Assembly (NCBI GenBank): GCA_903862465.1
Contig: CAIOYH010000124.1
Span: 1 to 61,795 of the forward strand
Origin: an uncultured bacterium
GTDB lineage: Bacteria; Bacteroidota; Bacteroidia; Bacteroidales; CAIWKO01
Length of the DNA: 61,795 nucleotides
Reading direction: 5' to 3'
Shown here: piece after piece, positions 1 to 26,819 of the stretch
How the letters are laid out: the number at the start of each line of letters is the position of its first letter
Numbering within the stretch: the stretch's first letter is position 1
Notes under the pieces: model-generated
Told to the model about the DNA's origin: nothing
Databases searched by the model: none
The model's input: only the letters and a program-made list of their open reading frames with translations
Program-made: the position numbers and the translations under genes

Positions 1-750
1 ATCAAATAAAGTAGGCTTATTGCCAAGGTCAGTATAGCTGCCACTAGTGGCTACGGTTGCCAAAGTAGGTTTGTTTAATAAAACACCTGTACCAGTTGCA
101 GCATTCCAATCTGTTTGAACTTGGGCAGCAGGTATGGTAGGCTGGTTGCTAAGGTCGGTATAACTACCACTTGTTGCTACGGTAGCAAAAGTTGGTTTCG
201 ACGTTATTTCTAACCATGTAGGCACGTAAGTGATAGGACGATACAATCCGGCATGATTTCCCCAACCATACGCCGTATTCCAGTTAGTGATATTTGGTGA
301 TGTTATTCCGTAAGATGGACTGTCAGTCCAAAGCGGGTCAGTTTCTGTGTAACTTGTAAGATACCCTGCTGAGGCATGATTGCCCCACCCATAAGCAGTG
401 TTCCAATAAGCAATATTGCTGCTTGTAATGCCGTAAGCTGATGAAGCCGTAAAAACCGGATCGCTTTCCGCACCGCCATATATTTTAACCCATAGTGCAC
501 CATTATAATAATAGTATCCCGCGGGCGCTCCTGTTTGATACACCAAAAGTCCGGTAGCCGGCTCGGTTACGTTGGCTGTTAACGTAACGCGCGGAGGTAG
601 GAAGCCTTTGGTTGAAGATTTAACATCCAACATAGCGCTGCCATCGGGCGAAGAACCATCGTTGTTGATACCCACACTTTGGGCAAAGCTTGGCATACTT
701 CCTACGGTAAAAAATGCCAAAAGTAAAAGGAAAGTAATTTGTTTTTTCAT
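1..750 (-). CDS. Secreted tail-fibre-like repeat protein, 5' part only (runs off left edge; absent from ORF track)
   Basis: ATG at 750 (minus). Read manually as MKKQITFLLLLAFFTVGSMPSFAQSVGINNDGSSPDGSAMLDVKSSTKGFLPPRV..., then two ETDP..WNTAYGWGNHA repeats and two ATVATSGSYTDL.N.PT repeats. No stop before position 1. Signal peptide ends at SFA-Q. Confidence 0.85.
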   Translation of the reverse strand, partial: MKKQITFLLLLAFFTVGSMPSFAQSVGINNDGSSPDGSAMLDVKSSTKGFLPPRVTLTANVTEPATGLLVYQTGAPAGYYYYNGALWVKIYGGAESDPVFTASSAYGITSSNIAYWNTAYGWGNHASAGYLTSYTETDPLWTDSPSYGITSPNITNWNTAYGWGNHAGLYRPITYVPTWLEITSKPTFATVATSGSYTDLSNQPTIPAAQVQTDWNAATGTGVLLNKPTLATVATSGSYTDLGNKPTLFD

Positions 751-824
751 ACAAATAAAGTATTTTAAAGTTCCTACTCTGAAGGCTTTTCGGATACCGC
801 CCCCGACAATAACCTTGTCGGGAC
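751..824 (-). promoter_or_regulatory. Conserved 5' leader (candidate structured cis-regulatory RNA), copy 1
   Basis: 784..824 matches 23446..23486 at 38/41 nt. Both copies also share AGAGTAGGAA and AATACTTTATTTGT immediately before the ATG. Confidence 0.6.
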
Positions 825-904
825 AAGCCCCAATGAAAGATGCCTGTATGGGTCAGGTTTGTTTTTTTAGGTGGTTATGCTCGTCCACGTCGATGTATTT
901 AAAA

Positions 905-953
905 GCTCATCCGACGACTTTGTTTCTTTTTGGGAGTCTGTCGTCGGATGAGT
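905..953 (-). terminator. Intrinsic terminator-like hairpin after the 243-aa gene, copy 1
   Basis: Arms CTCATCCGACGAC / GTCGTCGGATGAG followed by TTTT on the minus strand, 7 nt after the stop. Same arms occur at 23623..23659. Confidence 0.65.
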
Positions 954-960
954 TGGAGCC

Positions 961-1692
961 CTACCCAATGGTATGGGTATGAGGTCCGCTCCAGGGTCCT
1001 GCCAAATTTCTGTGGCTTGCCAAGGTCCAGCGAATCCAGAATTTGAAATCGAATCCGGCAAACTTCGGGTCAACGTTAACCAAAAATTTAGCAGTAGTTA
1101 ATAATTCTTTATTGTTAGTATCTGCCCAACTGTCGCACACTTTCAACACTTTCTTGTCGGTAGTTTCGTCAACTTTGCGTTTGCCTTCAATCACGGCATA
1201 CATAATTTCGACCATATCAGCTGTTTCGGGAATCGCATAATGTTTTTTATCGAATCGCGAACGGGTGCTGATAGAAAACTGTCCATTGGTGAGCGAAACG
1301 GTGTCGGGAATACAAACTTCAACTATCGGAGCTGTAGGAGTTTCTTTTGGTTTTACTAATCCTGTTTTGCGGTTTAAGGTTTCGCGGTCCGATGAGGTCC
1401 ATTTGCTGGCGGGTATGTCGTTATAAATTTCGCTCAACGCTTTCCGCATCTCTTTTGATTTTTGGCGTAAGCCGGCTTTCACCAATCTAGTGCGGCTTCC
1501 GGTGGCGTCGTCCCATAGGGTTTTAAAATACAGGTAGGTGTCGGGGATGTCCACATCGCCATATATGGCGGCTAATGCGGTTAGTTTTGCAGATGCAATG
1601 CCCAAACGAGTGGCATTGGCAGTTAAATAAGCCATTACGGCTACCAAATAGAGGAAAAATCCTAAAATTGTGGTTGGATATACGCTTCTCAT
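961..1692 (-). CDS. 243-aa hypothetical protein (helical N-terminal part, beta-rich C-terminal part ending in RW...GPWS); paralog of 23667..24398
   Basis: ATG-initiated ORF that aligns without gaps to 23667..24398 (roughly 60% identity by eye; shared YNDIPASKWT, LNRKTG, TRSRFDKKHYA, DETTDKKVLK). Confidence 0.9.
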   Translation of the reverse strand: MRSVYPTTILGFFLYLVAVMAYLTANATRLGIASAKLTALAAIYGDVDIPDTYLYFKTLWDDATGSRTRLVKAGLRQKSKEMRKALSEIYNDIPASKWTSSDRETLNRKTGLVKPKETPTAPIVEVCIPDTVSLTNGQFSISTRSRFDKKHYAIPETADMVEIMYAVIEGKRKVDETTDKKVLKVCDSWADTNNKELLTTAKFLVNVDPKFAGFDFKFWIRWTLASHRNLAGPWSGPHTHTIG

Positions 1693-1783
1693 ACTATTTA
1701 ATTTTTTTATGATTGTTTTTAATTTTGTTGATATTTATATGGATAAATGAAAATGGTTTTTAGCGATTATTTCTCTGATTACT

Positions 1784-2488
1784 TCATGAAAAACCTGTAT
1801 AGAATATGGGTTGACCCGATTTGTTGTAAAAATCATAGAGTTTGCTATAGAATTGAATAAAAATTTTACAGTTTTGTTTGTAATCAATAAACATACACAC
1901 ACATTTTGCGTAAATGTGCTTGCCTGTAAATGACTTGTACAAGCGTTTAATTGCGTTGTGCATATAATTTAAAATGCTGTGTATATAATTAAAAGTGTAG
2001 TGCGTATGTGCACAAATGCTGTGTGTATGTGCGCAAGTGCTGTGCGTATGTACACAAGTGCTGTGCGTATGTGCACAAGTGCTGTGTGTATGTACACAAG
2101 TGCTGTGCGTATGTACACAAGTGCTGTACGTATGTACACAAGTGTTGTACGTATGTACACAAGTGCTGTGCGTATGTACACAAGTGCTGTACGTATGTAC
2201 ACAAGTGTTGTACACGTGATTTAAAGTGTGTAAATCATGATTTATAATACGTAAATCATGATTTAAAAACCGGAAACTAAGTTTACATGGCTTGTCCTTG
2301 AGTTTTATTTGTAGATAATCAGATAGATAGGAAAAGAAGGCACAGATACTTTGTTTTAAACCATTCCACATTATTGAAAATCCAAATTGACCAGAGATAA
2401 ACTTGGTAAAAAAAGAGTTTATGCCACAGACTAAAGTCTGCATCATTGCAGTCGTATTTTTATGTATATATAGATTCCCCAAAATCAT
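1784..2488 (-). CDS. Possible heptad-repeat (HTHSTCV) protein; paralogous frame to 24490..25131; start uncertain
   Basis: Shares FSYLSDYLQIK and the C-terminus (KSGQPIFYTGFS* vs KSGKPFSYSGFT*) in the same frame as 24490..25131. Could instead be a non-coding element. Confidence 0.4.
   Translation of the reverse strand: MILGNLYIHKNTTAMMQTLVCGINSFFTKFISGQFGFSIMWNGLKQSICAFFSYLSDYLQIKLKDKPCKLSFRFLNHDLRIINHDLHTLNHVYNTCVHTYSTCVHTHSTCVHTYNTCVHTYSTCVHTHSTCVHTHSTCAHTHSTCVHTHSTCAHTHSICAHTHYTFNYIHSILNYMHNAIKRLYKSFTGKHIYAKCVCMFIDYKQNCKIFIQFYSKLYDFYNKSGQPIFYTGFS
1994..2268. repeat. 21-bp tandem array (unit ~GTACACAAGTGCTGTGCGTAT), ~10 well-conserved units plus 2-3 AAATCATGATTT-type units
   Basis: Directly visible 21-nt period; all six frames are open across it. 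Confidence 0.95.
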
Positions 2489-2580
2489 GTCTTCTTATTT
2501 TTTTTCGACCTATTCAATTAGTATAATTTCTTATGTAGCATGTTTATTTTTTATTTTAAGCTGATTACAATTTTAAAATG

Positions 2581-2642
2581 CAAAATTATATCAGTCACTA
2601 AAACAATCTGTCCTGAATTATATAATTTGCTAATTCAGGACA
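2581..2642 (-). promoter_or_regulatory. Bacteroidota -7 element (TAATTTTG, 2581..2588) with upstream inverted repeat TGTCCTGAATTA..TAATTCAGGACA (2609..2642); putative AraC operator
   Basis: Motif and 12-bp perfect arms are visible. An analogous arrangement exists at 25299..25380. Function is inferred. Confidence 0.45.
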
Positions 2643-3123: not shown

Positions 3124-4995
3124 TTATGCTTCATCATTGGATTTGTTCGTGGATTCCAGATTAGTTTTTCGAAAATCAACAGGATTCATTCCGGTGTATT
3201 TTTTAAAAGAGACATAAAATGCTGAGCGGGAATTAAAACCGCAATTTTCCATAATTTCATCAACGCTTAATGTTTTGTAATTAGCTTCAGTGAGCATGCG
3301 ACAGGATTCCTTAATCCGAAGTTGGTTGATATATTGATTAAAATTGCTCCTATGCTGCTCACGAATCAAAGCCGACACGTAGGTATGATTGGTGCGGAGC
3401 AAGCTTGCCAAATCGTCCAAACTAAAATTTTTCCTTAGATACGGTTTTTCATCCTGCATAATTTTCCCCAAATCGAAAATTAATTGTTGACGCACCTCTT
3501 CTGCTATAATTTTCTTTTCTGCTTGTCCCGCGTCTTTCATAAGCGACTGCCGAATTTTGTGTGTCACACCCTTATAGGCATCACGCAATTTTTGAAAACG
3601 CTTATACAAAAGAAATAAAGCTAAAAGAATGACCAACGAAATGATAGACACGAACCAAATTATTTGGTTTTTATGCTGTATGACATCGTTTTGAACTGCT
3701 TTTTTTTCGTTCAAATCCTGTATCGCTTGTTCGGATGCCACAGAGGAAATAAGTATTTGACTTTCGATAAAATCTAGGGAGGCTTTTTGTTTGATAATGC
3801 TATCGCGCAATAGCTGACCGAGCAAAGCATATTTGGTTTCGAGCAATGCGACATGCCTTTTCCCAAAAACAGAAGTAAGCGTATCGCAGAACGTTTTATA
3901 TACATACATGTCGTTTAATTTCGAAACCAATTGTATGGCTGTGTCGGCATTACGGGTACTTTCCTGCAAATCGCCGTTTCTATAATATAGGGCTAAGTTC
4001 AAAAACACATTGGCTTGCAACTCCTTAGTACCCGAAGCTTTAGCATACAGAGATGCGCGCGCAAAATGATAATCAGCACTGTCATTTTGTTGGAGAAGAT
4101 TAAAATATAAACCTAAATTTGTATGCGCTTTCGATTTGAATTCGTTCCATTGAAAATAATAAGTGCATTTTTTACTTGCTGCAGTCCTAAAGTTGTTTTT
4201 ATAGTAATTATTCAACACTTCTATACTTCGGTTGGCAAGGGCTTTTACGTAACGCGTGTCGCGGCAAATCACCAATACTCTCGCTATATAATTATAGCTT
4301 AGCGCTTTTCTTGGATCTGATGGATCGACAATATGCTGATTTGCATATAAAAAACACTGCAAAGCTTTGTGGTAGTAACCTTGATTTTGATACGCTAAGC
4401 CAATATTGTTAAGAGCCAAAGCCTGCGCATGAACACTTGGATTCTGTTTGCCTACTTCAAATGCGATTTGATAGAATTTGATGGCTTGCTTGAATAAATG
4501 AAAATGATAAAACACATTGCCGATGTCCACAAAAAAATAGGGATTGGAAGCATAAGGTTCGGGATTGGCAATAAAAATTTCTACAGCCTTCAAAAGACTC
4601 TTTAGCGCTTTGAGATTATCGGGTTTGTAATTTTGATAAAACTCCACAATTTCCCTATAGGTGTCTAATTTCTTCTGTGTAGCCTTCATCGAATCCTGAA
4701 AACGTATAGAGTAGAGGAGGGTTATTTCGCAAGAATCATGATTTAGAATTGAATAACGCTTAGCTACCAAAGCAATAGAATCAATACGTCGTGCTATAGC
4801 TGGATTGATTGGTTGGTCATTAGTACTATTAATTTCACCAGACTTTTTGCAAGATAAATAATACATCCATAGCAAGGGGCTTAATAATACGATAATCAAA
4901 AACAGCCTGCGAAGTTGTATTAACTTCCTTTGGCTTTCCTTCTCTAGGATGTCAACTGTAGAGTCAACTTCGTCGTTCAAAATATCGGTACTCAT
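3124..4995 (-). CDS. Membrane-anchored TPR-containing AraC-family transcriptional regulator
   Basis: N-terminal TM, TPR motifs (ALALNNIGLAYQNQGYYHKALQCF), second TM (IIWFVSIISLVILLALFLLY), C-terminal AraC HTH (GFNSRSAFYVSFKKYTGMNP). Confidence 0.9.
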   Translation of the reverse strand: MSTDILNDEVDSTVDILEKESQRKLIQLRRLFLIIVLLSPLLWMYYLSCKKSGEINSTNDQPINPAIARRIDSIALVAKRYSILNHDSCEITLLYSIRFQDSMKATQKKLDTYREIVEFYQNYKPDNLKALKSLLKAVEIFIANPEPYASNPYFFVDIGNVFYHFHLFKQAIKFYQIAFEVGKQNPSVHAQALALNNIGLAYQNQGYYHKALQCFLYANQHIVDPSDPRKALSYNYIARVLVICRDTRYVKALANRSIEVLNNYYKNNFRTAASKKCTYYFQWNEFKSKAHTNLGLYFNLLQQNDSADYHFARASLYAKASGTKELQANVFLNLALYYRNGDLQESTRNADTAIQLVSKLNDMYVYKTFCDTLTSVFGKRHVALLETKYALLGQLLRDSIIKQKASLDFIESQILISSVASEQAIQDLNEKKAVQNDVIQHKNQIIWFVSIISLVILLALFLLYKRFQKLRDAYKGVTHKIRQSLMKDAGQAEKKIIAEEVRQQLIFDLGKIMQDEKPYLRKNFSLDDLASLLRTNHTYVSALIREQHRSNFNQYINQLRIKESCRMLTEANYKTLSVDEIMENCGFNSRSAFYVSFKKYTGMNPVDFRKTNLESTNKSNDEA

Positions 4996-5365: not shown

Positions 5366-5394
5366 AACGACAAATTAATGACTATAAATGACCA
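5366..5394 (+). repeat. Short phased AATGAC array (3 units)
   Basis: AACGAC/AATGAC at 5366, 5377, 5387. Positions 5373..5394 are identical to 26779..26800. Confidence 0.7.
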
Positions 5395-18300: not shown

Positions 18301-21300
18301 GAAGTAAATCCGGTAGGGCTTGATGTCCATGAAAAGGAACATGGATTCAATTCACCTCCTGTTATGGAAATATCATCAACAACTAATGTATGCATGTTAG
18401 CAGCAGAGTAACAATTCCAAGCAAAATAATACATACTGGTCGTCATAGGTGTGAAAGTGGGATTAGCTTGTAACCAAGAAGTATTTACAATCCCAGCACC
18501 TGTCCATAATATTGTTGTTTGAGCTGCAACCGTGGGTGCATTTCCAACTGTAACTTTAAGGTTTTCCGGATAAGAAGTTCCGAAAGGAAGAACATACCAA
18601 AAAGAAATAGTATATGTAATGCCTGCGTTTAAGTTAAAGCCTTGTGTTATTCCCCAGCAATTTGCAGCATTATTCAAATTAAACGTCAAACTCATTGATT
18701 TTGTACCACTATGGTAATTTGATGTGTTGGAAGCCCACTGATTACCCAAGCCTGCATTTATAAAAGTCCAGTTTGCTGGGGGCCACGTTTCAAAACCTTC
18801 AGAATAATTAACCAAAGATCCAGCGTTCGATGATGAATTCAAGTTAAAAGACCCTCCAACACATACTGTTGGCATACTTGCAGTGGCTGTTACATTTGTT
18901 GGTATTGGATTAACAACAACGCTCACTGTAGCCGTTGATGCACATCCACCATAAGGACCTCCGGTATAATCATTTGCAGATACGGTATAAACTGTGGTTG
19001 CAATTGGTGAGGCAGTAACAACAGCACCCGAAGAAGGTGTAGTTGTCGGTGACCATGTGTACGTATAATCCGGGTTGCTACTTGTTGCTGTTAATGTTGA
19101 AGATGTCCCTTGGCAAATTGTAGTAGGGTTGGCGGTTGCACTTAAAGTAGGTGCTGTATTTACGGTTGCTGTAACGGCACTACGCGGATTGGAACAAACG
19201 CTTTGACCTGCAAATATCATATTTGGTCTTGCAGTAGATATTGTTGCAGAAGTAGAAAGTGGACACTGTGCACTATTATCAGCCACTAAGTATGCAACAC
19301 TATTAAAAGCAGTTGTTGTTCTATTCATGACAGCATTAGCAGTATAAAAAATACCTGAGCTTGTTGCATCATTTGTAAAGCAAACTTCCACAATAATATT
19401 TGAACTACCATCCCAATAAAAAGGATTAGAAAAAGTATGCGTATTTAAACCGGCAATAGGCTGATAATTTACCGGACCAAATACTGTGGTAAATCCGGTA
19501 GTTTGTAAAGTTGCCGTAAGTATATTTAATGGAGTATTTGCTATGCTAATTGTAAATGCTTTATGTACACCTGAAGTTCCAAGACTAGCCACATCAAATT
19601 TTAAAGAAGATAAATTGCCAGCACTTAAACCAGCAGCCGATAATTCCGAACCCAAAATCAAAATATGATGTTTGCCATTTTCATCCCAATTACCATAAGG
19701 GGCAGGATAGGTTTGGGTGGTATTTTGATTTGTTGTGCTTGTTCCAATAGTGGCATTCACTTGAACACCTGTTTCTGCTGCTACATAATAGGTTGTTGTT
19801 GCATTTATTATTGGTGTGGTCCAAGGTGAGCCTGAGACGGGCAAAGGAACACCACCTGTTGCAGCAGTGTACCAATTTAACGTTCCACCTGATCCTATGG
19901 CACTAAGAGATACGGTACCTATTCCGCATCGTGAGCCTGGAGTGGTTGAAGTAATGTTATTGTTAAAGGTTATATGAATTGGGGTTGAAGTGGCGGATGT
20001 AGGTCCATTCAAACATGTAACAATACATTGATAATAAAGTGGTGCATCGGGCACTACCGTATAAATGGATGATGTTGCATCAGATATATTGCTATATGCT
20101 ATCCCATCTGTTGACGATTGCCATTGATATGAAACTCCTAATCCAGTTGTAGCATTTTGCAATGAAAGAGTAATACTTTGTCCATTGCATAGTGGATTAG
20201 CTGTTGATAGCGTGTTGCCCGGTGTTGGCGTGGCGGAACACGGCGGTTGTGGTTGCATCACCAATTGAATATTTGGACGATTATATGTTCTACTTGTTGC
20301 AGTTGGCGGTGATGCAGGATTGGGATTGGTAGTGTTGTTATAATGATATAAAGTGCGGTAATTAGCTGATGTTGAAGTATATCTCCATGATGCAGCAGTC
20401 CCGACACCTGCCACGTTCTCATCTATAGCAACCACCAAGTTTGTCCCATCCCATATATAGGGTGTGGTTAATGTTATGGTCATCCATCCGGCAGCACCCG
20501 GTAAAGCGACGGCTCCATCGTAGCACGATGTTAATGAAGCTAAAGGAACCCAACTGGTGGTTGATGCAAAAGTTGCCGTTGCAGTGTTGCATAAATAAAC
20601 AACCCAAGAGTTAGTATTCGTTAAATTACCTGATCCAGCCCAATAAAACCTAATAGTTGTTATTTGCATACCTGCTACTCCTCCACCTGCAGAAATTTCT
20701 GATGCGGTATAAATTTGCTGCGTATAATTATAAGCGTACGCGCTATAAACCGGATTGTTCGCGGTTGTGGTTGTTGCAGTGCCGATGGTAACTGTAGGAT
20801 TAGCACTAAAAGTTGTAAAAGTTCCTTGTGTGGTATATACCGTACCACCACTATTAGTAGAAAAAGCCTTAAAATAATAAACTGTGGATGTTGTTAAACC
20901 GGTAACAGGTATAGTAAAACTTCCTGTTGAATAAGGACCCGGAGTTACAGATACTTTTGTTCCGGCTCCATCGGCAAATCCGTTTGTAGTGCTCCAATAG
21001 ATACCTCTTTCCGTAACCGGTGAGCACCCGGTGGCTGTAATATTACCTCCTAAAGTTGCTGTGGTCATTCCTATGCCTTGACTTGTGGGTGTAGTGATTG
21101 TTAGTGCAGGATTGATACCGGCTCCGGTAACGGAACGATTTACAGAAGCTGCTCCACCTCCACCAACGACAATATTACCACTATAGGATTGTACAGCAGT
21201 TGGCGAAAACTTTACATATACTATTTGTGAGAATGCACCGCCTGTTTGGGGTATAGTCAAACTAGAAGAATAGGTTGTGTTATCGATAGAATATGTAAAA

Positions 21301-23411
21301 CCACTTAATGCTGCTACTGTGATATCATCAGTTAATAAATCTGTTCCTGTAATAGTAAATGTATTAGGACCTGATGTTGTATTTATGCACACATTGCCAA
21401 AAGTTGTTATAGCACCAACAGTCAATGTAGGAGTAGCAGTAGTAAAAGTCCCCTGAGTAGAATATGATGAACCACTACTGTTAGTAGCAAATGCCTTAAA
21501 ATAATAAACTGTGGATGGTGTTAAGCCTGTTACAAGTATTGTGAAAGTTCCTGTTGAATAAGGTCCCGGTGTTTCTAAAACTTTTGTTCCGGCACCATCG
21601 GCAAATCCGTTCGTTGCACTCCAATAAATTCCTCTTTCAATAATATCTGAGCATCCAATAGCAGTTATATTACCTCCTAAAGTTGCAGTGGTTGAACCTG
21701 TAGCTGTGCTCGTAGGTGTGGTAATTGAAGGCGAACAATTTACATTAAAAGCCCCTGAAACTTCACTTGTTTGTGGAATTCCACAATCTCCACTAAGTAC
21801 ACAATAATAATATAATGTTCCCAAGGTTGTTGTTTGCGGAGTATAAGAATTGGTTTGAGCTCCATTATCTGATCCAAGAGATATGCCCCCAGTGTTGCTG
21901 CCAATTGTATTGCTGTACCATTGATAATTCAAGTTTGTTCCATTTGCTGTTATGCTAATAGGTGTGAAATTTCCATTTATCGATTGTGTTTGACTCGCAG
22001 TTAACTGGTAGCTAATTTCTGTGGCTGAATTTACTATAAATTCTCCTGAAACATTGCTTGTTTGTGGATTTCCGCAGTTTCCACTGACAATGCAATAATA
22101 ATATAATGTCCCTTCTGATGATGCTAAAGGCGTGTATATATTAGAATTAGAACCTATTACAGTTCCTTCCGAAGTATTTGCATTTGTATTTTTGTACCAT
22201 TGATAACTCAAATTTGTTCCAGAAGCACTTACACTAATAGCTGTGAAAGTTCCATTAATACACTGGGTTTGCGATGAAGTTGATTGACTGTTAATGATTG
22301 TTGGGTTGTTACAAGGAGATGATGGGTTGTATTTAAATACTGTCGCATTACCTGCTACACCACTATATGCCACAAAAGGGATACTGCTTGAATTTAAAGC
22401 AATAGAAGTAAATGCAGCTGATCCATTTGAAAACCCAATACCTCCAACGGCTACCCAATTGCTGCCATCATATTTCATAACCGTAACATTTGAATTGTTT
22501 CCGATATCCTCATAAGCAATATAAGGCGTTCCATTTCCATCTATTGCAATAGATGTATAACGAACCTCCCCAACCGAAAAGCCAGGGCTTCCAACCACGA
22601 CCCAGCTACTGCCATTATATTTCTTTACTGTTGCTTTCAGACTATTTCCACCATCCCTATATATCACATAAGGTGTCCCACTTCCATCAATGGCAATATC
22701 GGTATAAGCAGCATCTCCAGTTGAAAAAGCAGCATTTCCTACTGTTTCCCAACCACTACCATTAAATTTCTTGACGGTAGCTTTATAATTGTTTCCCGCA
22801 TCTCGATAGGCAATATAAGGTGTTCCGCCAAAAATAGCAATTGAGTTCCAAGAAGCATCTGCTGCTGAAATACCTGTACTACCTACAGCAACCCAACTAC
22901 TGCCATTATATTTCATTACTGTAGCTTTAAATCCTATTGTTTGATCCTCATAAACAATATAAGGTGCTCCGCTTGCATCAATTGCTAAATCAGTGAAATC
23001 GACTCTACCTGATGAAATTCCTGTAGATCCAACAGTTACCCAAGAACTTCCATTATATTTCATTACTGAAGCATTATAAGGGTAATCATAATTTGTATAA
23101 GCAACATAAGGAGTACCACTTCCATCTATGGCTATAGATGTGAAGGTAGCATGTCCGGAAGAAAACCCTTCAACTCCGACAGATTCCCAATAATTGCCAT
23201 TATATTTTTTTACCGAAGCTTTATAGGATTGCCCATAATCCGAATAAACCACATAAGGGATGTTGGTCGAACTAATTGCAATTGACGTATAAGTAGCCCC
23301 ATTTAGAGAAATATTATTTCCCAAAGGTTCCCATGATTGTGCCTGCACATTAAACAGACTCATTAGCAACGAAATGCTTAAAACAAGCATACATACGTAA
23401 AGTTTCTTCAT
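6318..23411 (-). CDS. Giant (5697 aa) multidomain T9SS-secreted adhesin-like surface protein
   Basis: Signal peptide; 7-repeat N-terminal propeller (TSIAIDGSGTPYVAY); eight Ig-like spacer modules; FN3-like pair; cleaved-adhesin-like domains; IPT/TIG plus 7 FG-GAP repeats (GDIDGDGKPDL); CARDB-like repeats (E..E.NN); SprB-like and MBG-like domains; T9SS type-A-like C-terminus (IYLVKVKT...KNVKV). Confidence 0.93.
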   Translation of the reverse strand: MKKLYVCMLVLSISLLMSLFNVQAQSWEPLGNNISLNGATYTSIAISSTNIPYVVYSDYGQSYKASVKKYNGNYWESVGVEGFSSGHATFTSIAIDGSGTPYVAYTNYDYPYNASVMKYNGSSWVTVGSTGISSGRVDFTDLAIDASGAPYIVYEDQTIGFKATVMKYNGSSWVAVGSTGISAADASWNSIAIFGGTPYIAYRDAGNNYKATVKKFNGSGWETVGNAAFSTGDAAYTDIAIDGSGTPYVIYRDGGNSLKATVKKYNGSSWVVVGSPGFSVGEVRYTSIAIDGNGTPYIAYEDIGNNSNVTVMKYDGSNWVAVGGIGFSNGSAAFTSIALNSSSIPFVAYSGVAGNATVFKYNPSSPCNNPTIINSQSTSSQTQCINGTFTAISVSASGTNLSYQWYKNTNANTSEGTVIGSNSNIYTPLASSEGTLYYYCIVSGNCGNPQTSNVSGEFIVNSATEISYQLTASQTQSINGNFTPISITANGTNLNYQWYSNTIGSNTGGISLGSDNGAQTNSYTPQTTTLGTLYYYCVLSGDCGIPQTSEVSGAFNVNCSPSITTPTSTATGSTTATLGGNITAIGCSDIIERGIYWSATNGFADGAGTKVLETPGPYSTGTFTILVTGLTPSTVYYFKAFATNSSGSSYSTQGTFTTATPTLTVGAITTFGNVCINTTSGPNTFTITGTDLLTDDITVAALSGFTYSIDNTTYSSSLTIPQTGGAFSQIVYVKFSPTAVQSYSGNIVVGGGGAASVNRSVTGAGINPALTITTPTSQGIGMTTATLGGNITATGCSPVTERGIYWSTTNGFADGAGTKVSVTPGPYSTGSFTIPVTGLTTSTVYYFKAFSTNSGGTVYTTQGTFTTFSANPTVTIGTATTTTANNPVYSAYAYNYTQQIYTASEISAGGGVAGMQITTIRFYWAGSGNLTNTNSWVVYLCNTATATFASTTSWVPLASLTSCYDGAVALPGAAGWMTITLTTPYIWDGTNLVVAIDENVAGVGTAASWRYTSTSANYRTLYHYNNTTNPNPASPPTATSRTYNRPNIQLVMQPQPPCSATPTPGNTLSTANPLCNGQSITLSLQNATTGLGVSYQWQSSTDGIAYSNISDATSSIYTVVPDAPLYYQCIVTCLNGPTSATSTPIHITFNNNITSTTPGSRCGIGTVSLSAIGSGGTLNWYTAATGGVPLPVSGSPWTTPIINATTTYYVAAETGVQVNATIGTSTTNQNTTQTYPAPYGNWDENGKHHILILGSELSAAGLSAGNLSSLKFDVASLGTSGVHKAFTISIANTPLNILTATLQTTGFTTVFGPVNYQPIAGLNTHTFSNPFYWDGSSNIIVEVCFTNDATSSGIFYTANAVMNRTTTAFNSVAYLVADNSAQCPLSTSATISTARPNMIFAGQSVCSNPRSAVTATVNTAPTLSATANPTTICQGTSSTLTATSSNPDYTYTWSPTTTPSSGAVVTASPIATTVYTVSANDYTGGPYGGCASTATVSVVVNPIPTNVTATASMPTVCVGGSFNLNSSSNAGSLVNYSEGFETWPPANWTFINAGLGNQWASNTSNYHSGTKSMSLTFNLNNAANCWGITQGFNLNAGITYTISFWYVLPFGTSYPENLKVTVGNAPTVAAQTTILWTGAGIVNTSWLQANPTFTPMTTSMYYFAWNCYSAANMHTLVVDDISITGGELNPCSFSWTSSPTGFTSSEQNPTNVSQIVNTEYTVTAQNDYGCVATASTTVAAVLEASIITQPAPAIKCLGQTATFIVAASGPNLIYTWQKNTIPIDPIANPSAATASLTLNNVTALDAGDYSVVMSADCGLPVTSDAAALTVKPVPTISASSNSPICAGSTLNLIGTNDIGSTFSWTGPDGFTSSSLSPTIPAATIAASGTYSISAILDGCVSLVSSISVVVNQTPSAITVTPSSATVCPGGNTQLLTASGGTISGVTILSETFNGGTNNWTKLNNSTNGTPALAAWTLEPDAYVYTTYGTWHSNDNSKFYMSNSDVQGTGGTTATILQSPSISTVGFTQVNISFWHYFYEPTTASSTGKVEVSLSGTTWTSLQTYNSTQGAVSDFVNANIALTAPFLNQSIVYIRFKYDGVWRFFWGIDNVSITGIGPAQTTWSPQTGLFTNVGATLPYIGSSTTTVYALPVANTTYTVTSTATSTGCASSNTVSVAVNAVTSIGSQSTEGQTQCIHGTFTPISVTASGIGTLTYQWYKNTVASTSGGTAVGANSNTYTPSTTVAGTLFYYCMVTGSCGTATSTVSGAFVVNPATTITSQSTATQTQYINGTFTSISIAANGSGTLSYQWFSNTSANTSGGIVIGTNSNTYTPLATTIGTLYYYCVVHSDCGADVTSAISGAFFVNPPPPTITYFTPASGAIGSSVTITGTNFNTTVAQNIVFFGATQAMVTEATSTSLTVTVPVGVTYQYISVTNLALNLTAYSASPFIVTLAGNIAFAKEQFSTGGYDPSVSIGDIDGDGKSDLVVANYGNNMIWVFRNMSISGNLSFAYNVNFTTGSGPSSVSIGDLDGDGKPDLAVAINNSSKVSVYLNTSTPGSISFATNVDFTTGSLPETINIGDLNGDGKPDLVVANTGSNTVSVLCNTSSLGTISFATKIDFTTGSVPFSASIGDIDGDGKPDLAVNNYSSNTVSVFRNTSTLGAISLSAKVDFTTGIGPGTLRIGDIDGDGKPDLAVPNISSNTLSVLRNTSSSGSVSFASKVDFTTGSTPYTVCIGDIDGDGKPDLAVPNSGSNTVSILRNTSTSGSVSFASKADFTTGTYPYSVCIGDIDGDGKPDLTVADRFSSTVSVLKQCTIYISSQSTATQTQCINGTFTPISVTASGTGTLTYQWYKNTVASNSGGISLGSDNGAQTESYTPEATTEGTLYYYCGVTGSCGTVVSEVSGAFIVNPVTSITNQSTASHSYCVGETCSAISVIATGTNLSYQWYSNTIESNSGGTSLDYENGAQTNSYTPQAIDIGTLYYYCVVTGDCGSPQTSLISGAFVVNSTPDAPTGSSPQSFCSGNSPKVADLVVSGSNIKWYSTPFGQSTCSGTFPLYSGSNYYATQTVAGCESSTRLTVAATVNITPDAPTGIAAQTFCSGATVANLAATGTTIQWYAYESGGSALATSTVLVHGTRYYASQTLYSCESSDRLGVTATVNTTAAPTGTAAQSFCSTASPTVASLAAIGTDVKWYDASSAGNLLVGSSALVSGTHYYASQTVDGCESSNLLDVTATIHTPSTVPTSINGTAVICNGTSTMLSVADGSLGAGASWHWYETNCGGALVAIGPSATLSPSSSRTYYIRAENACNTTACANVDITVNEISVAPTSFGGTTTICAGEHTTLSIVGGSLGTDASWHWYSGSCGGTFVETGATIDVNPAVNTTYYVRAEGTCNTSSCASATVTVNTLSIAPISISGTASVWIGVPTTLTVVGGSLGTGASYKWYFGACGEIGVFVDVGTSINVNPVTNTTYYVRAEGSCNTSDCSPEKAIDPPLNHPPTLNYTNNIGFVNHVVSPANGTPNDEYRFEVRYTDADGDLPAATYPRLKLDFDGNPATSDANDRLYFMMEIDPLDVDVSNGKDYYYIASSLPESNQWKTSITAVDDGNFSVVLGPEAEPDVLTAADVSIFANDITFSNSHPNPGDHITVSAVIHNYSGSPANNFEVRLVNQFAPDVVILPDPKPIAQIAAYSSTTVSWDIQTPDQPAWCPMQVIIDCNNALVEPNELDNQAIRPFINGNFVLPGHIEITATATPPVAYSNSTINVCGSAWYVGTSVVLLDPSCAGATVTYTVVETGQTGSTYSNSLGNYCFGIYAPFPVGIYHVNVHITDFTLDGDVSTSFEIIAPPPCLLPDLVATIDLGTQTVTPGNCHGNNCINILQGQALAGSVTVTNQGLGASLASELHIQSPDGNPNPSGNYPIPALAPGASFNIIIPAMTFINLGGTYFSTTVDFDSEIDECSEGNNNNSVCIMVHPTLPDIIASGNLGSPYYECQFNSITFWLDNQGGVATGPVGGNFACSLDITPLGGAVIHLPNVLVNNIPALTCTSVTFPWNQHHDPGNYSFEFHADCLPPLPLGGVVAEISELNNAVTVTTTLIACKPDLTVYGCSNLIVNPVDPIVGGPPAGDIIISATVANIGLEDSGPFDVEFMVDGNPTISNQLGLLIGQSRQIQITVPTPAFGNKVLTVTIDPVDPQGDIDESNEFNNVATASLCWDFYLTDLCGNGAFWNYTQIKNTPVTLDVGVNNLGIYKASNLDVHFYVRGPKVGGIYPAWGALPDATAQTFCGTTVCSCPFRLEGAPQYAFQSNGTYQVKMIADPHNAYIECDDFNNELIVEVLVSDKPEYRVLSQYIAPSLLNPDLNVPIDIDITYENIGMSSTQDIKLFTQVDNTPLEEQIVPGLMQGTFNTIHLVTPWSSNIRGIHIIRTFIDHDNQISENDELNNEATRAVIVGKAPNLVFIAHSVSNSLPPDGAQISIDATIQNIGYEICDATYRVYYLDNQGNEVLVGQQFISLDVDESIPISIPWTVVDTRTTLIGRISDGNPMEYNITDNEFSLDIGANLNLAFTTTPALCHSSADGVATVTVSSGGQAPYSYLWSNGYNVNSIAAVAGSYSVTVTDVDGLTSSGNVIITAPAALVVGVSISTPFTSVCQNDNITFTATPTNGGLAPMYNWYVGGVPQSEHSASFQYNGASESVYCIMTSNAACVSGIQETSNTINLTVNPIPSPPSGTTPQTLIPTSKISDISVTGTDIKWYNASTGGDLLLSSDVLIDGTTYYASQTINGCESSRLAITVIIPSCINPSITSQSTTTQTKCFGESFTAISIAATGTNLVYHWFSKADQITSGGNVVGANSNSYTPSATTVGTLYYYCVVHGDCGNDVTSQISGAFTVNPATTINSQSTASQAQCFNGSFTPIIVMASGTGTITYQWYKNTVASNNGGTSLGSANGAQTNSYIPSTATVGTLYYYCVVHSSCGSDVTSAISGAFTVSSASIGGSISGSSPITYGGSTGTLTLSSYVGSILNWEKKLNSGNWTTIANTSATYSEYPTAAGSWSYRAVVKNDGCVSVYSNVFCLIVNPKPLSITADDKFKNYDGTVYTGYTVSYSGFVLGDTYTSLGGSLTFSGTAITATSLGFYTITPSGQTSSNYAITYNNGTLEIFVCNPTYTVTNTLNNGIGSLRYAINHVCNNGTINFDPSIDNQIITLTTVPLNIDNTITFNNSNHTYGISISGSMNNIVINAGHTLTLASGSKVSVLGSIVNNAGVSGIVIASGASFIQNTTNLPATAKRVLSNAWHLFGSPFQQSMGATLSNINTGVGTVQLKPYTNGTNWLANVTSPLYFLQPTVGYAVCPSTTVTASLSGNLFNGLAAPCDYSIPLTYNGTAATQSWNLLANPFPSYLYWNALGKTNLSTSLYYWNPAVIGPPVTNTSYFSVYNSANGVGVPASTKPYIAPLQGFFVRAIYTNPKITLPLSARTHSTSTFYKESNNTEILVRLKTETEMGMDEMVICKNPDAKLTYEDYDSEKMFDGLPVGMFSLAASGEKLVINTINDINTIIPLTIMGNAGDKAKITAFDLESSLPVYLEDRLKGKITNLSENSSYSFEFLADEVNGRFFIRFNNSNAPLTASNFNVFETSQKLNIIAQTGEEIQEVEVFTLTGACVFKATPNSSNVFSATLNLSSAIYLVKVKTSLATKNVKVSWE

Positions 23412-23486
23412 ACAAATAAAGTATTATTGTTTTCCTACTCTATTTGGCTTTTCGGATACTGCCCCCGACAATTGCCTTGTCGGGAC
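23412..23486 (-). promoter_or_regulatory. Conserved 5' leader (candidate structured cis-regulatory RNA), copy 2
   Basis: Near-identical to 751..824. Minus strand reads GTCCCGACAAGGCAATTGTCGGGGGCAGTATCCGAAAAGCCAAATAGAGTAGGAA. Confidence 0.6.
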
Positions 23487-23622
23487 GGACCCCGAAAACT
23501 ACCTTATCGGGAAAGGTCCCAATTTAGAATGCCTCTATTGGGAGAGGCATATAGGTCAAATCTGTTGAATGGTATCCAAGGGGCTTAAGTTGTTTCTTTT
23601 TTTCAATGTAATATCAAAGAAA

Positions 23623-23659
23623 ACTCATCCGACAACAGGAGGTTTGTCGTCGGATGAGT
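23623..23659 (-). terminator. Intrinsic terminator-like hairpin after the 243-aa gene, copy 2
   Basis: ACTCATCCGACGAC..GTTGTCGGATGAGT followed by TTTCTTT on the minus strand, 7 nt after the stop. Confidence 0.7.
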
Positions 23660-23666
23660 CGGAGCG

Positions 23667-24398
23667 CTACGCTATGGTTAGCGTAAACGGTCCGTTCCAA
23701 TCGCCAGCCAAATGCTTGTGGTGGGTGTTGGTCCAACGTACAAAATACTTCACGTCGAATCCTGCCAAACTCGGGTCAATGTTCAATTTGAATTTTGCAG
23801 TTGTAGAGGAATCATGGCAGTTTGTTTCCGAAGGAATGCTGCATGATTTCAACACTTTTTTGTCGGTAGTTTCGTCAATTTTGCGTCTGCCTTCCACCAC
23901 AGCATACGCGATTTCGACCATATTAGCAGTATCCGGAACTGCATAATGTTTTTTGTCGAAGCGCGAACGAGTGCCAAAATGAAAAATACCCAATGGAAGC
24001 ACCGTAGCGTCGGGAATGCATGGGTCGCTAATTTGTTCCGTTGGTACTGTTTTAGATGCTTTTATTCCGGTTTTGCGATTTAGTTTGTCGCGGTCATTGT
24101 CGGTCCATTTGCTGGCAGGGATGTCATTATACGTTATGCTCAACTCTGCTTGCAGCTCTTTTGTTTTTTTACGTAAACCTCTTTTTACAGCTTTGGTGCG
24201 TGCGCCCGATTCGTCGTCCCAAAGTGCTTTGTAATACAAATAGGTGTCAACCGTGTCCACATCTCCATATAGGGCTCCTAAAATCAGAAGGCGAGCCGGA
24301 CTAACGCCTAATCGTGTGGCGTTTATGGTTATATAGGGCATTGCTATAATAATATAGGTGAAGAATCCTAAAATTGTTCCTGGATATACTGATGGCAT
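23667..24398 (-). CDS. 243-aa hypothetical protein; paralog of 961..1692
   Basis: Same length as 961..1692 and aligns to it without gaps. Confidence 0.9.
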   Translation of the reverse strand: MPSVYPGTILGFFTYIIIAMPYITINATRLGVSPARLLILGALYGDVDTVDTYLYYKALWDDESGARTKAVKRGLRKKTKELQAELSITYNDIPASKWTDNDRDKLNRKTGIKASKTVPTEQISDPCIPDATVLPLGIFHFGTRSRFDKKHYAVPDTANMVEIAYAVVEGRRKIDETTDKKVLKSCSIPSETNCHDSSTTAKFKLNIDPSLAGFDVKYFVRWTNTHHKHLAGDWNGPFTLTIA

Positions 24399-24489
24399 AT
24401 TATTTAAGTATTTATTGATTATTATTTATAAATTTGAAATGATTATTGAATTTTTAAAGTATAGAAAATGATTTTTTTCTTTAATTAAT

Positions 24490-25131
24490 TCATGTAAAAC
24501 CTGAATAGGAAAATGGTTTCCCTGATTTACTGACACTGCCTATACGGTTACAATTGTTGAAACTGTGGTTGCAAAAGCAATAGGTATGTTTTAAGATGAA
24601 ACGCATAAGGTTTACAGTTTTTGAACCACGGAAAAAAGTGTAGCAACCTCGGAAAAAAGTCCGGCAACCTCGGAAAAAAGTGTAGCAACCTCGGAAATAA
24701 TTCCAGCAACCTCGGAAAAAAGTCCGGCAACCTCGGAAAAAAGTCCGGCAACCATGGTTAAAAGTGCAGCAACCATGGTTAAAAGTGCAGCAACCATGGT
24801 TAAAAATCGCAAAAATCGGCTTAAAATGCGTGTGCTTGCGTTTTATTTGTAGATAATCAGATAGATACGAAAAACAAGCAGAGATGACTGCCATGGAAGT
24901 GCTCATAATCCCCCAAAATATATGATACACTACTATGATATGTCCTACGGCATTGTTTGGCATAAAATAAAACGACGAGCACGTTTGAGCGGGTGTGGAA
25001 TGAAAAGAGTTTTTTGTAATGTGCAAGCCGGCGTTCGTGCCGAATTTGGCGCAGCCTGTTGCCATTCTCCTGTTCTTTAAGGAGACTTGAGCCGCAAAAC
25101 CAAAACAAGCGATATCGAACCAAGGTTTCAT
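24490..25131 (-). CDS. Possible heptad-repeat (RTFFRGC / CTFNHGC) protein; paralogous frame to 1784..2488; start uncertain
   Basis: Shares the FSYLSDYLQIK and KSG.P..Y.GF.* anchors. N-termini are not similar. Confidence 0.4.
   Translation of the reverse strand: MKPWFDIACFGFAAQVSLKNRRMATGCAKFGTNAGLHITKNSFHSTPAQTCSSFYFMPNNAVGHIIVVYHIFWGIMSTSMAVISACFSYLSDYLQIKRKHTHFKPIFAIFNHGCCTFNHGCCTFNHGCRTFFRGCRTFFRGCWNYFRGCYTFFRGCRTFFRGCYTFFRGSKTVNLMRFILKHTYCFCNHSFNNCNRIGSVSKSGKPFSYSGFT
24622..24810. repeat. 21-bp tandem array, 9 units of two types (GCAACCTCGGAAAAAAGTCCG x6, GCAACCATGGTTAAAAGTGCA x3)
   Basis: Directly visible 21-nt period. Confidence 0.95.
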
Positions 25132-25298
25132 TCCTGAGTATTTTTTTTATTTACATAAATATAGAATCAGCTAAAGAGAAGTCTGTAGTCAACGCTTTTT
25201 TATTCACATTTTTTCTCCTTTGAGCATTTAATGAATCGGACAGCACTGTATAAAATAATTTCTTCATGAGCTTTCTATTCTAAAAATATAGTTATTGG

Positions 25299-25380
25299 CA
25301 AAGATAAGCTGAAAAGATTTTTTCTTTAATTTTCCGAACGAAAACTTAGTCCTAAATTTTAAAAATTAGGACTAAGTTTT
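25299..25380 (-). promoter_or_regulatory. Bacteroidota -7 element (TATCTTTG, 25299..25306) with upstream palindrome AAAACTTAGTCCTAA..TTAGGACTAAGTTTT (25341..25380); operator and/or terminator
   Basis: 15-bp perfect arms 8 nt past the AraC stop, with the same GTCC..GGAC core as 2609..2642. Confidence 0.5.
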
Positions 25381-25388
25381 TTGGGGAA

Positions 25389-26585
25389 TTAGGAAGGTAA
25401 TTTGGCGGCGTAAGCTCCTGGGGTGATGCCTTCAAATTTCTTAAAGGCGGTGAAAAAGGAATTTTTTGAGGAGAAGCCCGATTCTATGCCTAAAGCTTCG
25501 AGGGTATGTTTGCTTGTCCATTCTTTATCCATCAGCTTCTTGGCATAGTTCACGCGCCATTCATTGCAGCAATCATGGAAATGCCGCTTTTTCTCATTCT
25601 TGAAATAATAGGCAAGATGATGTATAGGTATCTGCGTGAGAATTGAAATATGAGCGATAGTGCATTTAGGATTTAAGAAAGGGCGTTGTTTGCGAACACA
25701 CGAATCTACTTTTTTTTGTATGAGTTTTAGATAGCCCGCCTCTAGAATTGCATCATGTTTTTCAGGTTCAATAGCTATAATTTCAATTTCTGTAGGGTTT
25801 GCCAACACCCTAGAGGTTGAGTTGGGCAGTTGCGGCAACCCATATAAAATGGCAGGAAATAAAAAAGGAGATATCAACAAACCTGTAATGCCTATTGCTG
25901 AAAAGACTCGTAAGGTATGGAGTGTGTTGAATAGCCTGATGTCATTATGTTGGATGGATTCTATCAGCATTAAGGTATGACTACATAGCAAAATGAACAA
26001 ACATAGCAGCAACATGACAATCCATTTAGTCATAAATTGCTGTCGCACGAAAACCGATTCTATTTTCTTTTGTTTTCGATAATGAAATAATAAAATAACC
26101 GACCAAAACAGGTAAGCCAAAATGAATAGAGAGCGGCTCAAAAAAACAATGAAAGCGGGGAAATTATGAAATTCGACGAACTGATGTGTCCACATATAGT
26201 TGGCATCTGCCACTATTTTTATAGCAATGTCCACTTTGTGTTCCCAAGGAGAAATAATATGCGTAAAAGACGCAATGAGGAAAAGCGCCATAGGAAGCAA
26301 ATGCCAAATATCCCTTCGTTTTAGATGAAAATTATCCGTCAAAATACTCCGAACGTACCAAAACAACATAGGACCTATCAGAAAAGACAGAAACCCTAAA
26401 TTTAAAAACACCACACTCACCAGAAACACCGATTTGGAATCCAACATAACATACTGCTGAAAACTACTGATGCTTATCAACAAAAAGAAAATTGCCAAAT
26501 AATTGGCAGATGTGTTTTTTCTTACATTGAAAAGCAGCAATAGTACAGACAGAAACATACCTAATATGGATAATGCTAGCAACAC
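25389..26585 (-). CDS. Polytopic membrane AraC-family transcriptional regulator
   Basis: About seven hydrophobic segments (GPMLFWYV, HLLP motifs), then an AraC HTH (GFSSKNSFFTAFKKFEGITP). GTG start. Confidence 0.9.
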   Translation of the reverse strand: MLLALSILGMFLSVLLLLFNVRKNTSANYLAIFFLLISISSFQQYVMLDSKSVFLVSVVFLNLGFLSFLIGPMLFWYVRSILTDNFHLKRRDIWHLLPMALFLIASFTHIISPWEHKVDIAIKIVADANYMWTHQFVEFHNFPAFIVFLSRSLFILAYLFWSVILLFHYRKQKKIESVFVRQQFMTKWIVMLLLCLFILLCSHTLMLIESIQHNDIRLFNTLHTLRVFSAIGITGLLISPFLFPAILYGLPQLPNSTSRVLANPTEIEIIAIEPEKHDAILEAGYLKLIQKKVDSCVRKQRPFLNPKCTIAHISILTQIPIHHLAYYFKNEKKRHFHDCCNEWRVNYAKKLMDKEWTSKHTLEALGIESGFSSKNSFFTAFKKFEGITPGAYAAKLPS

Positions 26586-26730
26586 TTCTTACATGTATTA
26601 TAGTGTGAATTTATGAGTGGTTAATTTTCTGCAAAACTACAATAATATTATAAATCGCAAAGAAGAATTTTTTATTTTTTTTACTTCACTTTCGTGGATA
26701 CTAAAAGTAAGCTACTTGAATCAATGCCTT

Positions 26731-26819
26731 AATGACCAGGAATGACCACCTAATGACAATAAATGACCCCCCAATGACAATTAATGACTATAAATGACCA
26801 CCTAATGACTACAACTGAC
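26731..26819 (+). repeat. Helically phased AATGAC array, 9 units
   Basis: Units at 26731, 26741, 26752, 26762, 26773, 26783, 26793, 26804, 26814 (spacing 10/11). Confidence 0.85.

Follow-up and report, generated by a model that had tools for sequence, protein, structure and literature searches.

What has been duplicated on this contig, and do the duplicated parts belong together as one system? The window, by which we mean the whole 61,795-nt stretch of DNA that was analysed (contig CAIOYH010000124.1 of an uncultured member of the Bacteroidales), carries on its minus strand two copies of an ordered set of parts that includes an array of 21-bp tandem repeats and, downstream of it, a gene for a 243-aa protein. 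The original prediction read these parts as a fixed expression chassis into which different sensors and different surface proteins are plugged. Comparison with homologous loci instead resolves them into two overlapping recurrent pairs. The array and the 243-aa gene are a conserved core, present in multiple copies and restricted to one subclade of the genus, a freshwater lineage. An AraC-type regulator gene followed by a secreted-protein gene with a DUF805b-type leader is a second, separate recurrent pair, and the window loci combine both. In the labels used below, the window is contig C124 of G000, a 4.2-Mb, Bacteroidota-type assembly of 230 contigs, an assignment matched by the RecN-like, type IX secretion system (T9SS) cargo and SprB-like proteins near the modules; G001 onward are other genomes, and Cn is a contig.

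Every part predicted for the two copies is found at or near the position reported for it, and the order is the same in both.

1..750, minus strand: cargo 1, the N-terminal 250 aa of a protein with a signal-peptide-like start and SGSYTDL repeats, running off the contig start
751..905, minus strand: leader 1, a hairpin (CCCGACAAGG..TTGTCGGG) adjoining a DUF805b motif (771-803) whose end lies about 20 nt before the cargo ATG
906..952, minus strand: terminator-like hairpin 1, a 13-bp stem then CTTTT (-22.7 kcal/mol, z -5.3)
961..1692, minus strand: 243-aa protein, paralog 1 (family F4), modelled as a helical bundle plus a C-terminal sandwich resembling fibronectin type III (FN3)
1784..2488, minus strand: array open reading frame (ORF) 1, 234 aa, the sense frame open across and past the array
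1993..2267: 21-bp array 1, 10.4 copies (1993-2211) plus 2.4 diverged copies to 2267
2581..2641, minus strand: palindrome GTCCT..AGGAC (2610-2641) and promoter-like TAnnTTTG box (2581-2588), upstream of array ORF 1
3124..4995, minus strand: AraC-family regulator 1, 623 aa, with a TPR region, one hydrophobic segment and a C-terminal HTH_18 domain
5366..5394: short AATGAC repeat upstream of AraC 1, only about 2-3 units
6174-6208: further AATGAC repeat
6318..23411, minus strand: cargo 2, a 5697-aa SprB-like adhesin with SprB repeat, Ig_7, FG-GAP, CARDB and a T9SS type A sorting domain
23412..23621, minus strand: leader 2, two hairpins of the leader-1 type, then a DUF805b motif (23432-23465)
23622..23660, minus strand: intrinsic terminator 2, a 16-bp stem then TTTTCTTT (-25.5 kcal/mol, z -6.7)
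23667..24398, minus strand: 243-aa protein, paralog 2, 60% identical to paralog 1
24490..25131, minus strand: array ORF 2, 213 aa
24624..24826: 21-bp array 2, 8.2 copies, its unit unrelated to that of array 1
25299..25372, minus strand: palindrome (25349-25372, directly past the AraC 2 stop codon) and TAnnTTTG box (25299-25306)
25389..26585, minus strand: AraC-family regulator 2, 398 aa, with about seven hydrophobic segments by eye and an HTH_18 domain
26731..26809: AATGAC array with a period of about 10 bp, between recN and AraC 2

Because similarity between the copies runs only from the palindrome to the cargo ATG, the duplicated unit is a segment of about 1.9 kb (741-2641 and 23402-25372, minus strand) that contains neither regulator nor cargo. 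Its order is palindrome with a Bacteroidota-type promoter-like box, array frame, 243-aa gene, terminator, and a leader, about 190 nt long, with the DUF805b motif at its end, just before the cargo ATG. The DNA matches at 68% over 905 nt around the 243-aa genes (936-1822 and 23642-24528), at 85% over the last 85 nt ahead of the cargo ATGs (741-824 and 23402-23486), and at 79% in the 85-nt stretch directly upstream of the arrays (2263-2347 and 24800-24885). The two 243-aa paralogs share 146 of 243 residues (E = 9e-112). The genome contains only six GTCCT..AGGAC palindromes whose arms reach 9 nt or more, and two of them are the equivalent sites of the two modules. A hairpin and a T run follow the stop codon of both 243-aa genes, as in an intrinsic terminator. 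The predicted homology of the central parts thus extends to the 243-aa gene, array flanks, terminator and leader, and fails for the array units. The ends of the modules are unrelated, as had been predicted: each segment copy is flanked by a non-homologous AraC-type regulator gene and a non-homologous exported-protein gene. Both regulators match HTH_18 (58.4 and 41.5 bits, cut-off 33.6) and are of the AraC/XylS kind, and this helix-turn-helix domain is all that they have in common (16% identity over 93 aa).

Outside the window, the array is the constant partner of the 243-aa gene. Homologs of the 243-aa protein, family F4, number about 70 in nine genomes, with seven copies in G000 (paralog identity 24-60%) and 2-12 copies in each of 8 of the 17 congeners. 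We fetched 35 homolog loci and called tandem repeats with Tandem Repeats Finder (TRF). Five loci were dropped (two duplicates, one without a match, one distant homolog in which the array is 1355 nt upstream, and one cut at the gene start). At all 30 evaluable loci, which come from nine genomes, a period-21 array starts 85-430 nt upstream of the F4 gene, with merely 2-4 copies at two of them, and the unit sequence is different for each array. In G000, an array lies within 600 nt upstream of 7/7 F4 genes, compared with a background of 250/3193 genes (7.8%). A metagenome scan with one protein added three F4 loci; one carries an array of 10 copies 139 nt upstream, and a second has too little upstream sequence to judge. 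The family is otherwise narrow in distribution, with two weak matches among 39 other genomes of the order and none in 400 genomes sampled across the phylum. Searches of larger collections return 27 clusters, all unnamed (among 5.8 billion proteins), and 480 representatives at E <= 1e-3 (among 1.84 billion proteins).

These recurrences bear directly on a one-off local segmental duplication without any wider pattern, which the original prediction had set out as its own alternative. Such an event would suit the fact that the window copies are mutual closest paralogs and the only ones to have the palindrome, the array-flank motif and the leader in common. It is refuted, and retains almost no probability, because homologs elsewhere (five more copies in G000 and about 60 in eight congeners) carry the array and mostly a secreted downstream gene.

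The 243-aa family has no match in Pfam, NCBIfam, PHROGs or PADLOC. For this protein, a viral structure library returns only FN3 domains, and a protein atlas returns only unnamed Bacteroidota clusters. Its AlphaFold model (predicted local distance difference test score, pLDDT, 85) combines a helical bundle at the N-terminus with an FN3-like sandwich at the C-terminus. Residues 118-243 superpose on a solved FN3 domain (VIA Z 10.6, root-mean-square deviation 2.0 over 91 residues) and give many FN3 matches in Foldseek (E = 3.8e-5), which places them in the fibronectin type III fold; the FN3 sequence model PF00041 does not match the protein. Modelled by itself, the N-terminal bundle reaches a pLDDT of 92.5. 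A DNA-binding or other known fold was sought for it and rejected, the matches being generic helical bundles (Z 8.2, below what is meaningful for helical folds; Foldseek E > 2). The first helix is hydrophobic. Because it packs into the bundle in the model, and because several paralogs lack hydrophobicity there, the protein is predicted to be cytoplasmic and without a signal peptide.

A secreted product is commonly encoded next to the F4 gene. At 20/26 F4 loci, the ORF that follows within 700 nt on the same strand starts with a signal-peptide-like sequence, a count that includes one MscL-like false positive, compared with 28% of crude genes in the background. Among first downstream ORFs from other genomes, 7/18 have a T9SS sorting domain (Por_Secre_tail or CHU_C), with two loci left out of this count. 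In the window, the 5697-aa protein matches TIGR04183 (T9SS type A) at 25.6 bits against a cut-off of 23, and its N-terminus, MKKLYVCMLVLSISLLMSLFNVQAQ, reads by eye as a signal peptide, so that it can be classed as T9SS cargo. The N-terminal part of cargo 1 has no Pfam or NCBIfam match.

The DUF805b leader and the regulator follow a different pattern. In G000, Rfam model RF02914 (DUF805b) has 20 matches at E <= 2e-4, nine of them over the cut-off, and these motifs lie 20-30 nt before start codons; the genes downstream of 21 genome matches are of varied kinds. In the window, 771-803 scores 35.8 bits, over the gathering score of 35.6, and 23432-23465 scores 34.9 bits, just under it. Both leaders fit the covariance model over their last 33-35 nt, with a short hairpin and then AGAGUAGG. 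DUF805b comes from a survey of 224 motifs as a candidate cis-regulatory RNA, and that survey's main text makes no mention of it (PMC5737381). Here the motif is extended by one or two extra hairpins and stands ahead of secreted, T9SS and assorted genes. Going by its name, it would be expected upstream of DUF805 protein genes; Pfam finds no DUF805 domain in the N-terminal part of cargo 1 or in the 5697-aa protein. Both window leaders have this extended form, about 190 nt long with an extra hairpin, in common with the leader of a 3202-aa secreted protein (locus G000:C54:354-10848). The gene ahead of that leader encodes a 219-aa protein that is not of family F4, has an FN3-like C-terminus and has one paralog, on C187. 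The motif follows an F4 gene at 5 of about 70 loci, namely the two window copies, G010:C13, G011:C42 and G017:C2, which contradicts the idea that the leader is specific to the module.

An HTH_18 gene lies in the contig neighbourhood of an F4 gene only at the two window copies, among the approximately 70 homologs in nine genomes. The AraC gene followed by a DUF805b-led gene does recur, and it does so without the array and the 243-aa gene. In G003:C374, a 53% homolog of AraC 1 is followed by a DUF805b-led secreted protein with neither array nor F4 between them, and G010:C400 has an AraC gene and then a DUF805b-led secreted gene in the same manner. At G003:C323 an AraC gene and a DUF805b-led gene are divergently oriented, again without array or F4. 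At G000:C35:12568-15244 and G000:C51:16997-18967, an AraC-family gene precedes three same-strand genes with their own DUF805b-type leaders, some of which are doubled. The AATGAC repeats are less specific still. The array at 26731-26809 is clear, the repeat at 5366-5394 is marginal, and the genome holds 57 such arrays, which marks them as a generic repeat and not a module part. AATGAC repeats with a period of about 10 bp occur within 700 nt upstream of 3/10 AraC genes (the two window sites and G000:C152:51445-51496), compared with 58/3193 genes overall, and their orientation is inconsistent.

The reading as a fixed chassis, in which AATGAC repeat, AraC gene, palindrome, array ORF, 243-aa gene, terminator and leader form one unit with the regulator as an integral part, has in its favour the full order in both window copies, palindromes that are nearly unique to the two modules, and the enrichment of AATGAC repeats at AraC genes. 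Its regulator is absent beside all of the other 68 or so homologs. In G010:C13, the closest ortholog of paralog 1 (81% identity) retains both array and DUF805b leader and has a non-AraC upstream gene, and the leader follows few homologs. Since an AraC gene with a DUF805b-led secreted gene exists without the cassette, the supposed chassis is better described as two overlapping pairs. The fixed-chassis reading is largely refuted and we regard it as very improbable. Of the neighbourhood that the original prediction proposed for homologs, the arrays, the secreted next gene and, in part, the T9SS domains are borne out, and AraC genes and leaders are not.

The arrays at F4 genes belong to a class that pervades the genome. 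TRF reports 2820 rows for G000, including 575 of period 21, 338 of period 7, 262 of period 14 and 174 of period 42. Merged arrays of at least 100 bp number 331 and total 75.8 kb, or 1.8% of the genome. Their period is fixed at 21, 42 or 63. Their sequences form 214 clusters, of which 143 are singletons, and some pairs may be one array split over contig ends. Contig ends often fall inside a 21-bp array (C2:1-362, C10:1-236, C15:1-212, C26:1-161, C29:1-140 and C30:1-215), and because so many contigs begin or end in this way, array counts and copy numbers are lower bounds. The 21-bp arrays are a main cause of assembly breaks, and contigs from four public DNA runs are short and also break at arrays.

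Arrays are concentrated in front of particular genes. One lies within 600 nt upstream of 21/47 genes for T9SS-type proteins and is enriched at eight small families of 200-330 aa: in addition to F4, these are F1 (13/26), F2 (13/17), F3 (7/9), F5 (5/13), F6 (4/4), F8 (3/3) and F10 (3/4). Representatives of the eight families have no Pfam match save fn3 in F2 and a weak, sub-threshold CarboxypepD_reg in F1, and libraries other than Pfam were checked for some of the small families only. Kinship between the families is mostly undetectable by hhalign, the exceptions being F3 with F10 (93.6%) and F1 with F5 (56%). In random 20-kb pieces of other genomes, arrays track the presence of F4. Four carriers yield 12 arrays in 323 kb (G005, one in 91 kb; G013, six in 100 kb; G014, four in 100 kb; G017, one in 32 kb), compared with none in 350 kb from five non-carriers (50.5 kb of G009 and 100 kb of G016, both of the same genus, 100 kb of G018, 60 kb of G020, and 40 kb of G023, which is of another family and has only a weak distant F4 match). 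F2 occurs in exactly the same eight congeners as F4, and F1 in six of those eight.

Unit sequences can differ between loci that are otherwise nearly identical. G000:C199 and G010:C497 agree at 132/133 nt from array to ATG, and about 8-10 of the 21 unit positions differ in every copy. The units of module 1 and of G011:C42 have 14 nt in common and 7 replaced. Two database ORFs equal array ORF 1 minus exactly 21 and 42 residues (three and six units), a difference for which assembly collapse is also possible. By eye, the orthologous arrays L007 (G000:C18), L030 (G010:C302) and L035 (G011:C187) keep a central AAATG(G)ATTC, and the inverted arms to the left and right of this centre are different (GGCG..CGCC vs CTCCA..TGGAG). 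Of 266 units, 22.9% contain an inverted repeat of 5 bp or longer, vs 10.5% of shuffles; since only this share of units has them, hairpins are not a general property of the arrays. RNA structure in the arrays was rejected, five-unit windows giving a mean z of -0.3 to -0.5 relative to tandem shuffled units with sense equal to antisense. An origin of the 21-mers from heptamers was likewise rejected (cyclic lag-7 match 0.278 vs 0.261 expected).

Most arrays elsewhere sit in front of a promoter-like box, and those at F4 genes mostly do not. Genome-wide, the arrays are non-coding, and 157/331 have no covering ORF of at least 60 aa. TAnnTTTG boxes occur between array and gene at 2.8 per kb vs 0.8 (180 boxes in 244 cases). 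At the F4 loci of G000, such a box is found between array and start at 0/7 and within 300 nt upstream of the array at 3/7. Among 28 upstream sequences that come from the nine genomes and are 600 nt or longer, a box lies between array and start in two and upstream of the array in about 15/25, as read by eye. F4 loci also keep one sense frame open for a median of 151 codons beyond the array, compared with 16.5 genome-wide and 13 in antisense. In G000 this frame extends 71-266 codons past the array at 7/7 loci, and at least 100 codons at six of them, and the other frames close at once. At 22 loci whose longest sense frame spans the array, it ends 1-94 nt before the F4 ATG. Its translations contain the stretches SYLSDYLQIK and SGQPIxYTGF, conserved in several loci, and are of odd composition, rich in C, F, H and K with few acidic residues. 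The open frames often extend well upstream of any ATG. The array frame at F4 loci is unlike a normal gene; it is probably translated, or at any rate held free of stop codons.

We favour a composite reading, to which we assign a probability of about 0.5. The array ORF and the 243-aa gene would be one transcript that runs from the box upstream of the array to the terminator. For the cargo gene, expression would proceed by way of its own DUF805b-type leader, with the AraC regulator next to it probably in control. The arrays would act in cis through their 21-bp period, which corresponds to two helical turns and could provide bending or spacing in phase, and not through their sequence. If copy number and units change rapidly, the result would be heritable variation in how the cassette and the surface-protein gene beside it are expressed. 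The 243-aa protein could then serve as a cytoplasmic accessory factor of the exported protein encoded downstream.

Several observations weigh against this composite reading. No promoter-like box was seen between the terminator and the cargo ATG. The metagenome homolog L123 has no TRF array in the 962 nt upstream, which show just a lag-21 autocorrelation of 0.356. F4 loci may work unlike the bulk of the arrays, since most of the others sit upstream of promoter-like boxes. The array frame scores 0.024 per codon vs 0.19 for real genes in a test that favours any open frame, and its alignable flanks have a ratio of nonsynonymous to synonymous substitution rates (dN/dS) of 0.27-1.5, near 1 in three of five pairs. 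The flanks also show a lag-21 autocorrelation of 0.31-0.33 vs about 0.275, and part of the openness of the frame can be put down to the old degenerate repeats which this weak signal indicates. Across all eight small families, a secreted-looking gene is found within the next two genes in 27/83 cases, compared with a 28% background; the link to cargo is not general. The gene set of 3193 consists of our own crude ORF picks, and the signal-peptide rule is crude enough to count an MscL-like protein as positive. Finally, the carriers of the families are related species that may form one clade, so counts of loci and genomes are not independent.

Some of these points are what would be expected if the arrays were a neutral satellite, that is, fast-evolving junk in long intergenic regions that was duplicated together with the families downstream and has no array-dependent function. 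Units free in sequence that turn over by concerted evolution, folding no better than that of shuffled units, the lack of strand bias, dN/dS near 1 and degenerate array edges all fit such an origin. It is harder to reconcile with a period held at 21, 42 or 63 in 331 unrelated arrays, with arrays that keep their place in paralogs down to 24% identity, with enrichment at eight barely related families and at T9SS cargo, and with a frame kept open at F4 loci only; we consider it unlikely. A similarly low probability attaches to the array ORF as a true gene, encoding a hypervariable protein of seven-residue repeats that acts with the 243-aa protein as a two-protein system. The sense frame that stays open at 7/7 loci and stops just short of the next ATG, the conserved stretches, and length variants that differ by whole units would all be explained. 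Against these stand the nearly neutral codon usage, dN/dS of up to 1.5, the odd composition, frames that often begin well upstream of any ATG, a family without Pfam, NCBIfam or PADLOC match, and the absence of a long upstream frame at L123.

The composite reading also has to be set against two further ideas. A mobile cassette, in which a selfish array with its small gene inserts upstream of genes and preferably of surface-protein genes, would account for the patchy, multi-copy and lineage-restricted distribution, for AraC-leader pairs found with and without a cassette between them, and for a duplicated segment that stops at the cargo ATG. No transposase, integrase or terminal repeats were seen beside the seven copies, although no systematic search was made, and the paralogs are old (24-60% identity), which leaves this explanation improbable, more so than the satellite. 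More speculatively, the arrays and at least eight lineage-restricted families of helix-plus-sandwich proteins might form one undescribed, lineage-specific system that sets or diversifies expression of the T9SS surface repertoire, with arrays that are fixed in period at two helical turns, free in sequence and actively renewed, and with a frame at F4 loci that may yield hypervariable heptad-repeat peptides. Wholesale replacement of units at near-identical loci would then reflect active repeat-making and not slippage. The helix-plus-sandwich build is modelled for the 243-aa family only, with Pfam fn3 in one F2 member and the rest judged by eye, and we hold this larger system to be doubtful.

Several components of the composite reading (leader, AraC domains, FN3 fold, T9SS cargo and terminators) belong to known kinds and are ordinary examples of them. 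The period-fixed arrays, with their locus-specific units and their coupling to protein families, have a real chance of being a distinct system, and a literature search on DUF805b, on 21-bp and heptanucleotide repeats in Bacteroidetes, and on tandem repeats with T9SS found no description of the cassette or of such arrays. The nearest relatives may be the intergenic heptamer repeats (TAACTGA and related, STRR-like) of Cyanobacteria, Beggiatoaceae and a few Bacteroidetes, which have been described without a known function (PMC4679880). Like the 21-bp arrays, those repeats are abundant, mostly intergenic, of lengths based on seven, patchy in phyletic spread and often upstream of start codons, and G000 itself has many rows of period 7 and 14. 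The arrays described here differ in being true 21-mers with no lag-7 sub-period, in having locus-specific units and in being tied to protein families. Intergenic heptamer arrays are present in the window too: CCAAATA, AAATCTA, ATTTGAG and AGTTCAG at 37122-37200, 37700-37725 and 60670-60784 are among the 338 period-7 rows.

Simple-sequence contingency loci provide a second comparison. In these, tracts of repeats within the promoter or 5' region of a surface-protein gene vary in copy number within or between populations and change expression. They resemble the arrays in being hypermutable tandem repeats beside surface or secreted genes, with apparent copy-number variants of an otherwise identical locus, for which assembly collapse is again an alternative. 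Here the units are of 21 bp and not 1-7 bp, and whole units are replaced, not only changed in number; because a change by 21 bp disturbs neither reading frame nor helical phase, simple on/off switching would not be expected. Examples of contingency loci are quoted in the introduction of the heptamer study (PMC4679880). The regulators resemble AraC/XylS hybrid regulators, with a C-terminal HTH_18 domain and a place upstream of a secreted-protein gene that is also seen at other loci of the genus, and they differ in N-terminal parts that are mutually unrelated (TPR and one hydrophobic segment vs about seven such segments). The 5697-aa protein resembles the SprB-type T9SS adhesins of gliding Bacteroidota in its SprB repeats, Ig_7 (CHU_C-associated) and T9SS sorting domain; no sprC-, sprD- or sprF-like partners were seen, although no search aimed at them was made, and we know of no counterpart of the upstream 243-aa gene in the described spr operons. 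Iterons are direct repeats of 17-22 bp next to the gene for a winged-helix Rep initiator. The repeat length fits, and the N-terminal domain of the 243-aa protein is a generic helical bundle whose Z of 8.2 is weak for helical folds. An origin role for the arrays is implausible because there are 331 of them on the chromosome. A CRISPR array was rejected, as the units run head to tail without spacers and the cassette proteins have no PADLOC match.

Nearly 2% of this genome thus consists of arrays that are fixed in period and free in sequence, concentrated before T9SS proteins and eight multi-copy families. If it is true that they tune or diversify surface proteins, they would represent a new route to surface variation in Bacteroidota, unlike invertible promoters or short-repeat slippage, and would offer a concrete handle on the old question of the role of heptamer-based intergenic repeats. 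The orphan Rfam motif DUF805b gains a recurring context with AraC-type regulators and secreted proteins. In practical terms, such tandem arrays break short-read assemblies.

The window holds a few other features. A 109-aa ORF with a proline-rich tail (5663-5992, plus strand), which matches nothing in Pfam or NCBIfam, sits between the end of the 5697-aa gene and AraC 1. Further along, a gene at 33915-37118 encodes a thermolysin-like M4 peptidase with a T9SS sorting domain. Two arrays, at 37873-38058 (21 bp, 8.9 copies) and 38182-38492 (42 bp, 7.4 copies), sit between a 164-aa ORF on the minus strand (37200-37694, without Pfam match) and an SPFH/Band 7 gene (38749-39516). Another 21-bp array, of 3.8 copies (50977-51056), comes directly after a gene of the PD-(D/E)XK nuclease family (48107-50959).

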